From NCBI RefSeq assembly GCF_013315695.1, contig NZ_CP054353.1: DNA of 64,000 nucleotides; one strand, given 5' to 3'. The translations under genes were made by a program, and so were the position numbers. Every line of letters starts with the position of its first letter. Positions within the stretch are counted from its first letter, which is position 1. This document shows positions 16,352 through 24,905 of the stretch, piece after piece. The notes under the pieces were generated by a model. The model ran no database searches. It saw nothing but the letters and a program-made list of their open reading frames with translations, and had not been told where the DNA came from. This stretch comes from Escherichia coli (lineage in GTDB: Bacteria; Pseudomonadota; Gammaproteobacteria; Enterobacterales; Enterobacteriaceae).

Positions 16352-19051
16352 ATGCGTAAATATCCTTTAAGTTTACTGAAGGATAAAAATATTGTGACTT
16401 TTTTTGATTTCTGGGGAAAAACCCGACGCGGCGAGAAAGACGGGGGCGACGACTATCACCTTCTTTGCTGGCATTCGCTGGATGTAGCCGCGATGGGCTA
16501 TTTAATGGTTAAAAGCAATTGCTTCGGACTGGCTGACTATTTTCGTCAATTAGGTTTCGCTGACACGGAGCTGGCAGCACAATTTTTCGCCTGGCTGCTG
16601 TGCTGGCACGATATTGGAAAATTTGCCCGCTCTTTTCAGCAACTTTACCTGCACCCACAACTCAAGGTTCCGGAAGGCGCAAGAAAGAATTACGAAAAGA
16701 TCTCTCATTCAACGCTGGGCTACTGGTTGTGGAACCATTATTTAAGTGAATGTCAGGAGTTGCTTCCTTCATCTTCACTCTCTCCGCGCAAACTTAAACG
16801 GGTGATGGAGATGTGGATGCCCATGACTACCGGGCATCATGGTCGACCCCCTGAGCGTATGGATGAACTGGATAATTTTCTGCCTGAAGACAAAGGTGCC
16901 GCACGAGATTTTCTCCTTGCAATCAAGGTACTGTTTCCGCTCATAGAGATCCCCACATTCTGGGATGATGACGAGGGCGTTGAACTTATAAAACAACTTT
17001 CCTGGTATATCTCTGCAACCGTCGTACTTGCAGACTGGACGGGATCGTCAACGCGATATTTTCCACGCGTCGCACAGACAATGGATATTGAAGATTACTG
17101 GCAGAAAACTTTAGTTCAGGCTCAAAACGCCTTAACCGTCTTTCCTCCAAAAGCAGAAAGCGCGCCTTTCACCGGAATTAATACGCTGTTTCCTTTTATT
17201 GAGAATCCGACACCGCTACAGCAAAAGGTGCTGGATCTGGATATCAGCCAGCCGGGACCACAGTTATTTATTCTGGAGGATGTAACCGGCGCAGGTAAAA
17301 CAGAAGCGGCGCTTATCCTGGCGCACAGGTTGATGGCTGCGGGGAAAGCGCAGGGTTTGTTTTTTGGCCTGCCAACAATGGCAACGGCCAATGCCATGTA
17401 CGATCGACTGGTCAAAACCTGGCTTGCTTTCTATTCGCCAGAGTCCCGCCCCAGCCTGGTGCTGGCACACAGTGCCCGAACATTAATGGACCGCTTTAAT
17501 GAATCACTCTGGTCCGGTGATTTAGTCGGGTCAGAAGAACCGGATGAACAAACGTTCAGTCAGGGATGTGCGGCCTGGTTTGCCGACAGTAACAAGAAGG
17601 CGCTACTGGCTGAAATTGGCGTCGGCACGCTGGATCAGGCGATGATGGCTGTGATGCCGTTCAAACATAATAATCTGCGGCTTCTGGGACTGAGTAACAA
17701 AATCCTGCTGGCTGATGAGATCCATGCCTGTGACGCTTACATGTCATGCATTCTTGAAGGGCTGATCGAGCGGCAGGCGCGTGGCGGAAACAGCGTCATT
17801 TTGCTTTCTGCCACGTTATCTCAACAGCAGCGCGACAAACTCGTTGCTGCCTTTGCGCGTGGTATAGAGGGCCAGCAAGAAGCTCCGTTCCTGGAAAAGG
17901 ATGATTACCCCTGGCTGACGCACGTTACGAAATCCGATGTGCATTCACACCGGGTAGCGACGCGCAAAGACGTTGAGCGCAGCGTGAGTGTGGGTTGGCT
18001 TCATAGCGAACAAGAGTGTATTGCGCGTATCGAATCGGCGGTAAGTCAGGGGAAATGTATCGCCTGGATCCGAAATTCTGTCGATGACGCCATCCAGGTT
18101 CATCGTCAGTTACTTGCCCGCGGCGTCATTCCTGCTTCCAGCCTTTCACTTTTTCATAGCCGCTTTGCTTTTAGCGATCGCCAGCGAATTGAAACGGAGA
18201 CGCTGGCACGCTTTGGTAAAGAAGACTGTTCACAGCGTGCCGGAAAAGTCCTCATTTGTACTCAAGTCCTGGAGCAGAGCGTTGACTGCGACCTGGACGA
18301 AATGATTTCCGACCTTGCCCCTGTTGATTTACTGATCCAGCGAGCAGGGCGATTACAGCGACATATCCGCGATATGAATGGCCAGTTAAAGCGTGACGGT
18401 AAAGACGAGCGTCACCCTCCTGAATTGCTGATTCTGGCCCCCGTCTGGGACGACTCTCCGGGTGACGAATGGTTTGGCAGTGCCATGCGTAACAGTGCAT
18501 TTGTCTATCCCGATCATGGGCGAATCTGGCTGACGCAGCGTGTGCTGCGTGAGCAAGGTGCTATTCAGATGCCACACTCAGCCCGGCTTCTGATTGAATC
18601 AGTCTACGGTGAGGACGTAGTAATGCCGGAAGGGTTTGCCCGCAGCGAGCAGGAGCAAGTGGGCAAATATTACTGCGATCGCGCAATGGCTAAAAAGTTT
18701 GTACTGAACTTCAGGCCCGGCTATGCCGCCAATATCAACGATTACCTCCCGGAAAAACTGTCGACACGTCTGGCTGAAGAGTCTGTTTCCCTGTGGCTGG
18801 CTACCTGTATTGACGGTGTGGTGAAGCCTTATGCCACAGGTGCACACGCATGGGAAATGAGCGTTGTCAGAGTGCGCCGAAGCTGGTGGAAAAAACATCG
18901 GGATGAGTTTGCTTTACTGGAAGGGGATGCGTTCAGGCAGTGGTGCGTTGAACAGCGGCATGATCCGGAGATGGCAAACGTGATTTTAGTCACCGATGAC
19001 GAAAGTTGTGGGTATTCGGCTACGGAGGGATTGATTGGCAAGGTTGGTTGA
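16352..19051 (+). CDS. cas3: Type I-E Cas3 HD-nuclease/helicase
   Basis: 899-aa ORF with an N-terminal HD region (HSLDVAA...HDIGKF), Walker A GAGKTEAA and DExH box LLADEIHACD; start could instead be the GTG 14 codons downstream. Confidence 0.9.
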   Translation: MRKYPLSLLKDKNIVTFFDFWGKTRRGEKDGGDDYHLLCWHSLDVAAMGYLMVKSNCFGLADYFRQLGFADTELAAQFFAWLLCWHDIGKFARSFQQLYLHPQLKVPEGARKNYEKISHSTLGYWLWNHYLSECQELLPSSSLSPRKLKRVMEMWMPMTTGHHGRPPERMDELDNFLPEDKGAARDFLLAIKVLFPLIEIPTFWDDDEGVELIKQLSWYISATVVLADWTGSSTRYFPRVAQTMDIEDYWQKTLVQAQNALTVFPPKAESAPFTGINTLFPFIENPTPLQQKVLDLDISQPGPQLFILEDVTGAGKTEAALILAHRLMAAGKAQGLFFGLPTMATANAMYDRLVKTWLAFYSPESRPSLVLAHSARTLMDRFNESLWSGDLVGSEEPDEQTFSQGCAAWFADSNKKALLAEIGVGTLDQAMMAVMPFKHNNLRLLGLSNKILLADEIHACDAYMSCILEGLIERQARGGNSVILLSATLSQQQRDKLVAAFARGIEGQQEAPFLEKDDYPWLTHVTKSDVHSHRVATRKDVERSVSVGWLHSEQECIARIESAVSQGKCIAWIRNSVDDAIQVHRQLLARGVIPASSLSLFHSRFAFSDRQRIETETLARFGKEDCSQRAGKVLICTQVLEQSVDCDLDEMISDLAPVDLLIQRAGRLQRHIRDMNGQLKRDGKDERHPPELLILAPVWDDSPGDEWFGSAMRNSAFVYPDHGRIWLTQRVLREQGAIQMPHSARLLIESVYGEDVVMPEGFARSEQEQVGKYYCDRAMAKKFVLNFRPGYAANINDYLPEKLSTRLAEESVSLWLATCIDGVVKPYATGAHAWEMSVVRVRRSWWKKHRDEFALLEGDAFRQWCVEQRHDPEMANVILVTDDESCGYSATEGLIGKVG

Positions 19052-19140
19052 GATGTCTGCGACAGGATTCTCTGAATAGTTGATACACAAAAAAGGATGG
19101 ACAACCGACCAGGGATGGTCTTTTTTACGAGAGGATGCGT

Positions 19141-23695: not shown

Positions 23696-24615
23696 CGTTT
23701 GTACCGCTGAGCCCGATCCCGTTAAAAGATCGCACCTCCATGATCTTCCTCCAGTACGGTCAGATCGACGTACTGGACGGCGCTTTCGTGCTGATCGACA
23801 AAACAGGGATACGCACGCACATTCCGGTGGGAGCGGTCGCCTGTATTATGCTCGAACCGGGAACGAGAGTTTCCCACGCAGCGGTGCATCTGGCCGCCAC
23901 GGTGGGGACGCTACTGGTCTGGGTCGGTGAAGCGGGTGTTCGCGTCTACTCTTCCGGACAACCCGGTGGGGCGCGTGCTGATAAGTTACTCTACCAGGCA
24001 AAGCTGGCTTTAACGGAAGATCTACGCCTGAAGGTGGTGCGCAAAATGTATGAATTACGTTTTCGTGAGCCACCCCCCGCTCGCCGTTCAGTGGAGCAGC
24101 TACGGGGAATCGAGGGATCCCGCGTTCGCCAAACCTATGCATTACTGGCGAAACAATATGGTGTGAAATGGAATGGTCGCAAATACGATCCTAAAGACTG
24201 GGAAAAAGGCGATGTTGTCAATCGCTGCATCAGTGCTGCCACATCATGCCTGTACGGTATATCTGAAGCGGCTGTATTAGCCGCGGGATATGCGCCCGCT
24301 ATTGGTTTTATCCATAGTGGCAAACCGCTTTCATTTGTTTATGACATAGCCGATATCATTAAATTTGATTTGGTTGTGCCAAAGGCATTTGAAATAGCGG
24401 CAAGACACCCGGCAGAACCTGATAAAGAAGTGAGACTGGCCTGCCGTGATATTTTCCGTAGTAGTAAATTAACGGGCAAATTAATTCCGTTAATTGAGGA
24501 AGTCCTTGCCGCCGGTGAAATTGAACCACCACAACCTGCGCCGGATATGTTACCACCAGCTATCCCGGAACCTGAATTGCTAGGTGATAGTGGTCACCGG
24601 GGGCGCAGCGGATGA
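23692..24615 (+). CDS. cas1: Cas1 integrase
   Basis: GTG start ([27 protein letters not shown]...) after a GGAGCAGAGG RBS, overlapping the casE stop; conserved Cas1 core. Confidence 0.9.
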
Positions 24616-24905
24616 GCATGGTCGTGGTTGTTACAGAAAATGTCCCTCCGCGCTTACGTGGACGGCTTGCAATCTGGCTCCTGGAAGTACGTGCCGGTGT
24701 TTATGTTGGTGATACATCAAAACGTATTCGGGAGATGATCTGGCAGCAAATCTCCCAACTGGCAGGTTGCGGAAATGTGGTCATGGCCTGGGCGACCAAT
24801 ACCGAGTCGGGTTTTGAATTTCAGACCTGGGGTGAAAACAGACGTATTCCGGTGGATTTGGATGGGTTACGGTTGGTTTCGTTTCTTCCTGTTGAGAATC
24901 AATAA
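24612..24905 (+). CDS. cas2: Cas2
   Basis: 97-aa [29 protein letters not shown]...; ATGA overlap with cas1. Confidence 0.9.

Follow-up and report, generated by a model that had tools for sequence, protein, structure and literature searches.

This study concerns a type I-E CRISPR-Cas locus in a 64,000-nucleotide (nt) stretch of Escherichia coli DNA (assembly GCF_013315695.1, contig NZ_CP054353.1; one strand, 5′ to 3′), hereafter called the window. A complete operon lies on the plus strand between cysJIH and iap-cysDNC, with the gene order cas3-cas8e-cas11e-cas7e-cas5e-cas6e-cas1e-cas2e. The listing of open reading frames (ORFs) and their translations bore out the original prediction, made from the DNA letters alone, that all eight I-E genes are intact and in canonical order; no internal stop was found in any of the eight. 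The first gene, cas3 (16352-19051, 2700 nt), encodes the E1 variant of the HD nuclease and superfamily 2 (SF2) helicase. The large Cascade subunit is encoded by casA (cse1, cas8e; 19141-20703, 1563 nt), whose ORF opens at 19135 and whose RefSeq start (MNSFSLL...) corresponds to 19141, and the small subunit by casB (cse2, cas11e; 20700-21236, 537 nt). These are followed by casC (cas7e; 21251-22306, 1056 nt), which encodes the Cascade backbone, by casD (cas5e; 22317-23063, 747 nt) and by casE (cas6e; 23045-23695, 651 nt), the gene of the endonuclease for precursor CRISPR RNA (pre-crRNA). The integrase gene cas1e (23692-24615, 924 nt) has a GTG start overlapping the end of casE, and cas2e (24612-24905, 294 nt) completes the operon. 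The cas3-cas2 block has a GC content of 51.5%, compared with 44.8% for the block in K-12 and a window average of 52.6%.

Upstream of cas3, also on the plus strand, the window carries a toxin-antitoxin locus of the hok/sok type. The sok/hok-leader RNA element (15863-16020) matched Rfam RF01794 with 111 bits, against a gathering score of 59, and the intact 50-amino-acid (aa) Hok/Gef toxin ORF (16005-16157) encodes a protein 98% identical to the annotated Hok/Gef protein of E. coli O157:H7; the nearest genomes, too, annotate it as a member of the Hok/Gef family. Both parts expected of a type I hok/sok system, the RNA element and an intact Hok ORF of about 50 aa, are therefore present.

Downstream of cas2, an AT-rich leader of 96 nt (24906-25001, plus strand) of the leader-A type, with a promoter-like match at 24946-24973, precedes a short CRISPR2.1 array (25002-25214, plus strand). 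The leader is 93% identical to that of O157:H7 and 70% identical to that of K-12. The repeats of the array start at 25002, 25063, 25124 and 25186; the first two are perfect 29-nt copies, the third has 3 mismatches, and the fourth is a degenerate terminal repeat. With a spacing of 61-62 nt and no match expected by chance, these adjacent palindromic repeats, spacers of about 32 nt and an upstream AT-rich leader identify it as a I-E array. The two leader-proximal repeats begin with GTG (AACAC on the other strand), the CRISPR-A type (W = A in ...GGGGAACWC), which is defined, like leader-A, in PMC3737337. The third repeat and the terminal repeat, which are degenerate, begin with GAG, as in K-12. 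Among the three spacers (32, 32 and 33 nt), spacer 2 (25092-25123) matched Salmonella phage SSU5 at 29/32 positions, with an AAG protospacer adjacent motif (PAM) directly upstream; 29/32 positions also matched in many phage-plasmids similar to SSU5, from Klebsiella, Escherichia, Enterobacter and Yersinia. As far as a sequence match can tell, this together with the canonical AAG PAM indicates past spacer acquisition. Spacers 1 and 3 had no phage match at E values up to 1 and no spacer-specific plasmid match among the matches listed. The remaining listed matches, which do not include spacer 2, were set aside as CRISPR repeats in mis-filed chromosomal records. No second I-E array was found in the window; CRISPR-II, which in O157:H7 stands between queE and ygcE, lies just beyond its left end. 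The nearest genome, NZ_LR898874.1 (99.9% identity), aligned in two pieces spanning 13,562 bp against a query of 13,501 bp, which would fit an array with one additional repeat-spacer unit.

Family membership was called with curated NCBIfam cut-offs, using both generic I-E models and K-12-specific equivalogs. All eight Cas proteins scored above the curated cut-offs of the generic models. Cas3 gave 215 bits with TIGR01587 (cut-off 102) and 88 bits with TIGR01596 (cut-off 43), which provides the type I signature, and the I-E subtype signature genes casA (TIGR02547, 607 bits; cut-off 70) and casB (TIGR02548, 105 bits; cut-off 28.5) were both recognized. The other scores were 444 bits for CasC (TIGR01869), 158 for CasD (TIGR01868), 288 for CasE (TIGR01907), 380 for Cas1 (TIGR03638) and 133 for Cas2 (TIGR01873). 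With the K-12-specific models, Cas3 reached 420 bits (PRK09694; cut-off 569) and CasA 105 bits (PRK09693; cut-off 576), so that neither protein shows the equivalog-level similarity that marks the K-12 variant, cas-E2/cas-EK. Cas3 retains the HD, TGHHG, Walker A (GxGKT), DExH, SAT and QxxGRxxR motifs, the Cas1 catalytic residues E141, H208 and D221 are invariant, and CasE has a histidine at position 20 in the N-termini of the window and K-12 proteins alike. By sequence, the locus is a complete and apparently functional type I-E system. Following established I-E biochemistry, the processing of pre-crRNA would fall to Cas6e, the binding of PAM-flanked DNA to Cascade, the degradation of the bound DNA to Cas3 and the insertion of 33-bp spacers beside the leader to Cas1-Cas2.

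Comparison with K-12 MG1655 by BLASTP separated the proteins of the locus sharply. Identity was 28.8% for Cas3, 21.1% for CasA, 31.5% for CasC, 34.6% for CasD and 26.9% for CasE, with no significant match for CasB; Cas1 and Cas2 were 84.8% and 86.2% identical, and the neighbouring CysJ, CysI, CysH, Iap, CysD, CysN and CysC 98.8-100%. Two statements of the original prediction thus held: that Cas3 and CasA to CasE are strongly divergent, a pattern far beyond chance, and that the flanking cys genes are near-identical. Its third statement, that Cas1 and Cas2 are closer to K-12, is correct for the proteins and fails for the DNA. The two genes are only 70% (cas1) and 74% (cas2) identical at the nt level, and the segment from cas1 through cas2 and the leader 71.6%, whereas identity in the flanks, on the left as far as 16007 and on the right from the array on, is about 97%. 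Between cas3 and casE, no nucleotide alignment with K-12 was possible. In Nei-Gojobori estimates, synonymous sites were saturated, with a proportion of synonymous differences (pS) of 0.83 in cas1, 0.73 in cas2 and about 0.77 in cas3, casC and casD, while synonymous divergence (dS) in the flanks was 0.05-0.19. Because of this difference, cas1 and cas2 must be placed inside the foreign block that distinguishes the two genomes, and were not kept from a common E. coli ancestor. Divergence of the flanks from K-12 is itself uneven, with a dS of 0.19 in cysN (27433-28860), 0.05 in cysD and 0.08 in iap, which hints at ordinary patches of homologous recombination.

The result was quite different with E. 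coli O157:H7. A single alignment of 14,044 nt at 95.0% identity covered the flanks and all cas genes (window 11000-25030), with no break across the boundary of casE and cas1, and the Cas proteins were 94-99% identical (for instance, Cas3 94.3%, CasA 96% and CasC 98.6%), except CasB at 84%. Uniform identity to one reference lineage is exactly what the original prediction had named as speaking against a replacement, and nothing was replaced in the window genome. The O157:H7-like identity along the operon, the leader-A and CRISPR-A types and a GC content above that of E2 all assign the locus to cas-E1; published mean GC contents are 53.5% for E1 and 45.6% for E2. Within the alignment to O157:H7, the cas genes are about 94% and the flanks about 97.5% identical at the nt level, with dips at the 5′ end of cas3 (16250-16750, about 0.88), in casA (around 19500, 0.86) and in casB, where a hypervariable patch covers aa 40-62 (about 20817-20885). 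The dips and the CasB patch suggest recombination or diversifying selection among the E1 Cascade genes, and the dips agree with reported recombination among these genes. Cas genes mostly 95-99% identical to E. coli E1 (CasB 87%) were also found on short contigs of metagenome-assembled genomes (MAGs) labelled "Bacillota bacterium" (locus L003) and "Collinsella sp." (locus L079); these contigs almost certainly come from E. coli and were mis-binned into unrelated MAGs.

Nucleotide alignment located the breakpoints relative to K-12, which the original prediction had proposed to look for across cysH-cas-iap. On the left, the alignment ends sharply at 16007|16008, right after the hok ATG, and the sok region is 97-100% identical to K-12 up to 16007. 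The divergent block that begins there takes in all eight cas genes as well as the leader; its right junction lies inside the array, since K-12 conserves the degenerate terminal repeat and whatever follows it. K-12 keeps the RNA element, annotated as sokX, and the ATG of hok, and the rest of the hok ORF is lost exactly at the junction with the cas cassette. A recent survey likewise found hok together with sokX in the majority of strains, those like K-12 having only sokX (PMC12736100). A truncated hok of this kind can be derived only from an intact arrangement like that of the window, which gives the swap its polarity. We therefore consider it very probable that the window carries the standard majority allele of E. 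coli CRISPR-I, cas-E1, and that the K-12 lineage carries a replacement of the whole block. The ancestral slot between cysH and iap would have held hok/sok, cas3, casABCDE, cas1, cas2, leader-A and the CRISPR-A array. In a subset of E. coli including K-12, an AT-richer cas-E2 cassette from a deeply separate effector lineage would then have replaced everything from just after the hok ATG to a point within the array, all eight cas genes and the leader included. The original prediction, that the effector module was exchanged by horizontal transfer or recombination within a conserved chromosomal context, therefore stands as regards a cassette exchange between cysH and iap with a sharp left breakpoint; the unit exchanged, however, is the whole operon with its leader, and the exchange took place in the K-12 lineage.

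The distribution of the cassettes among relatives bears on the same polarity. Species-representative genomes were scanned with a Cas1 alignment, and the best 80 of 202 loci by Cas1 similarity were compared. In E. albertii, E1 has hok on one side and iap and cysD on the other, and in Escherichia sp. MOD1-EC7003, where cysI and cysH lie upstream, it again stands next to hok; E1-like cassettes adjoin cysH and/or iap in Salmonella, Klebsiella and Citrobacter. By tblastn, E1 CasA was 97% identical to that of E. albertii, 70-76% to those of Salmonella, Klebsiella and Citrobacter, 41-48% to a "lineage 3" and 22-28% to class B, the deep effector class that includes K-12 (see below); the divergence of the window's CasA is thus not anomalous. 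The arrangement cysH-[I-E cas]-iap-cysD is common to Escherichia, Salmonella, Klebsiella, Citrobacter, Enterobacter, Raoultella and Pluralibacter. Three different effector lineages occupy this slot in different Enterobacteriaceae species, and hok was seen in the Escherichia loci only (L004-L033).

The reverse polarity, with E2 ancestral and E1 imported into the lineage of the window and most others, could draw on the fact that both cassettes differ in GC content from the cys flanks and on the report that E. fergusonii carries E2 (PMC3903273). It appears highly improbable nevertheless, given that the K-12 hok, cut after its ATG, derives only from the intact arrangement, that the slot between cysH and iap also holds E1 or E1-like cassettes in E. 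albertii, Salmonella, Klebsiella and Citrobacter, with Cas1 and Cas7 diverging together, that the GC content of E1 lies near the window average and that of E2 does not, and that E1 occurs in more genomes. Several points nonetheless weigh against a replacement in the K-12 lineage of a functional majority allele. Reports generally describe the I-E systems of E. coli as transcriptionally silent, and the array of the window holds just three spacers. Of 5426 complete E. coli genomes, 2413 carry the E1 type and 1115 the E2 type, the K-12-type cas block (each at ≥80% query coverage); these figures are not population frequencies because the set is biased towards K-12 laboratory derivatives and clinical clones. 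The polarity rests on the hok remnant, the taxonomic distribution and the literature rather than on a dated phylogeny. A long-lived polymorphism of E1 and E2 across the genus Escherichia is formally still compatible with the data, E. fergusonii being reported with E2 (PMC3903273) and E. albertii with E1.

The protein-level closeness of Cas1 and Cas2 could be taken to mean, in line with the original prediction, that only cas3 to casE were replaced in the window genome and that cas1-cas2 are the vertically inherited originals. Identities of 85-86% for Cas1 and Cas2 beside 21-35% for the effectors would fit such an event, and events of this type do occur elsewhere, as described below for Oceanospirillum and for one E. 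coli strain. At the present locus, it is refuted by dS, the saturated synonymous sites and 70-74% nt identity of cas1 and cas2 being irreconcilable with flanks at about 97%. Further, the leader differs as well, the 95% E1 alignment crosses the boundary of casE and cas1 unbroken, and the window's Cas1 groups with those of E. albertii, Salmonella and Klebsiella, whereas the K-12 Cas1 groups with those of Enterobacter and Pluralibacter. We give this explanation next to no credence. Instead, as part of the foreign block brought in with E2, Cas1 and Cas2 would look close through very strong purifying selection on Cas1e and Cas2e, and through a history of the adaptation genes that, in this I-E clade, is not shared with the effectors. 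Cas1e proteins are 75-98% identical across Gammaproteobacteria, whichever effector class accompanies them. Identities of 75-98% to both E. coli variants extend to Pectobacterium, Oceanospirillum, Marinomonas, Methylophaga, Shewanella and, more remotely, Parasutterella, with 75-87% to both variants in Oceanospirillum, Marinomonas, Pectobacterium and others. The 85% identity between the Cas1 proteins of the window and K-12 is therefore the background level of the clade and no special closeness. That K-12 Cas1 is 92-95% identical in aa sequence to several Enterobacteriaceae whose cas1-cas2 are only 71-74% identical in nt sequence shows extreme constraint.

Constraint could in principle be the entire explanation, with one co-inherited operon in which Cas1-Cas2 evolve slowly and the modules never decoupled. 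In favour of such rate differences, the nonsynonymous divergence (dN) of cas1 from K-12 is only 0.13 with saturated dS, and the K-12 Cas1 comparison just given is of the same kind. This account proved partly true as regards extreme constraint and fails on the effector classes, which are polyphyletic in the Cas1 tree. Neighbor-joining trees with 100 bootstraps were built for Cas1, Cas7 and Cas3 from the loci pre-selected by Cas1 similarity. On Cas7, two deep effector classes, 24-35% identical to one another, were distinguished: class A, which includes E1, and class B, which includes K-12. The bipartition of class B was recovered in 100/100 bootstraps of the Cas7 tree but in 0/100 of the Cas1 tree, where class-B Cas1 proteins pair with class-A Cas1 proteins of the same genus in Oceanospirillum, Marinomonas, Methylophaga and Citrobacter, and K-12 pairs with Enterobacter sp. 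The median Cas1 identity was 0.80 between classes and 0.81 within them. The closest matches of K-12 Cas1 (92%) belong to systems with class-A effectors; with Cas1 of Citrobacter amalonaticus, the nearest relative of K-12 by effectors, its identity is only 86%. Rate differences alone are therefore an unlikely explanation. The conflict between the Cas1 and Cas7 trees points to in-place effector swaps in other genera, and the K-12 cassette itself looks like a mosaic of effector and adaptation modules; in this I-E clade, the adaptation genes would have a history separate from that of the effector genes.

A direct example is provided by Oceanospirillum linum (L023) and O. maris (L032), in which the left flank and cas1-cas2-array are both about 78% identical at the nt level, no alignment is possible across cas3-casE, and homology sets in again precisely at the start of cas1. 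This is an in-place swap of the effector module, the event that the original prediction had imagined, in another genus. Other same-genus pairs (L040/L038 and L022/L031) have different deep effector classes beside related cas1-cas2.

Hybrids within E. coli were sought with two chimeric queries against the 5426 complete genomes, ranked by coverage × identity, with a true hybrid required to rank first; a criterion of ≥80% coverage was dropped because megablast runs on through the 72%-identical cas1 and does not separate hybrids. No hybrid of E1 casE with E2 cas1 was found among these genomes, and exactly one of E2 casE with E1 cas1 was detected, in strain BS-04 (L086; NZ_CP172819.1, GCF_044648255.1; 11600-12830). 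This strain has the K-12 arrangement at cysH, without an annotated hok, and cas3-casE of K-12 length, with the end of casE 100% identical to K-12. The crossover falls within cas1 codons ~10-12, in the conserved 5′ end; from there on, the sequence is E1 and O157-like, mostly at 92-100%, and is followed by an E1-type cas2 and downstream sequence. The BS-04 hybrid could be a true recombination product or an assembly chimera. Tentatively, and with somewhat less than even confidence, we propose that the boundary of casE and cas1 is a recurrent recombination joint in gammaproteobacterial I-E systems, at which the adaptation unit (cas1-cas2, leader and array) remains with its host lineage while effectors of the two ancient classes, A and B, are swapped in place. 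The cases that speak for this are the K-12 cassette, the pair O. linum and O. maris, and BS-04.

These results matter for how K-12 is used as a model. K-12, the biochemical reference for type I-E, carries a minority imported cassette, and among the complete E. coli genomes counted that bear cas genes, about two thirds have effectors only 21-35% identical to the K-12 proteins that have been studied. Results obtained in K-12 on PAM choice, anti-CRISPR sensitivity and regulation may therefore not transfer to E1 strains. A spacer-acquisition motif of CWT has been described for the E1 type and of CTT for the K-12 type (Diez-Villasenor 2013, PMC3737337).

The difference between E1 and E2 is already known, having been characterized in 2013 and 2014 and re-tabulated in 2025. 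Diez-Villasenor 2013 described cas-EO and cas-EK with leader-A and leader-T (PMC3737337), and Almendros 2014 named the major, primary variant cas-E1 and that of K-12 cas-E2, proposing that, after a loss of cas-E1 mediated by insertion sequences, a module was inserted that comprised an intergenic region, the full set of cas-E2 genes, the L2 leader and one or more repeats (PMC3903273). The 2025 survey lists the same gene lengths and essentially the same identities between E1 and E2, namely 73% nt and 84% aa for cas1, 75% and 86% for cas2, 29% for cas3, 31% for cas7 and no match for casB (PMC12736100). The window matches cas-E1/cas-EO, the O157:H7 type that the survey calls "var. B-8552" (PMC12736100), in the cysH-hok-cas-iap locus, in gene order and in gene lengths, and differs from it in allelic detail only, with CasB at 84% to O157:H7 and a three-spacer array with its own spacers. 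With K-12 cas-E2/cas-EK, it shares the subtype, gene order, slot and terminal repeat, and the 29-nt repeat differs by a single base; K-12 stands apart in its effectors (21-35% identity), a CasB that BLASTP does not detect, a GC content of 44.8%, a T-type leader and the deleted hok ORF. The joint between casE and cas1 in I-E systems may be new to the literature, as may the E. coli hybrid. The proposed joint fits the trend of in situ effector shuffling published in 2025 (Makarova 2025, PMC12669027), in which close cas1 genes likewise stand beside distant effectors at the same locus. In our data, this likeness is shown by the pairs from Oceanospirillum, Marinomonas and Citrobacter and by K-12 Cas1 compared with its class-A neighbours. 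The worked example of that study is Cas9 of subtype II-C; its "I-E2" denotes an HNH-Cas5 variant and is distinct from the cas-E2 of Almendros.

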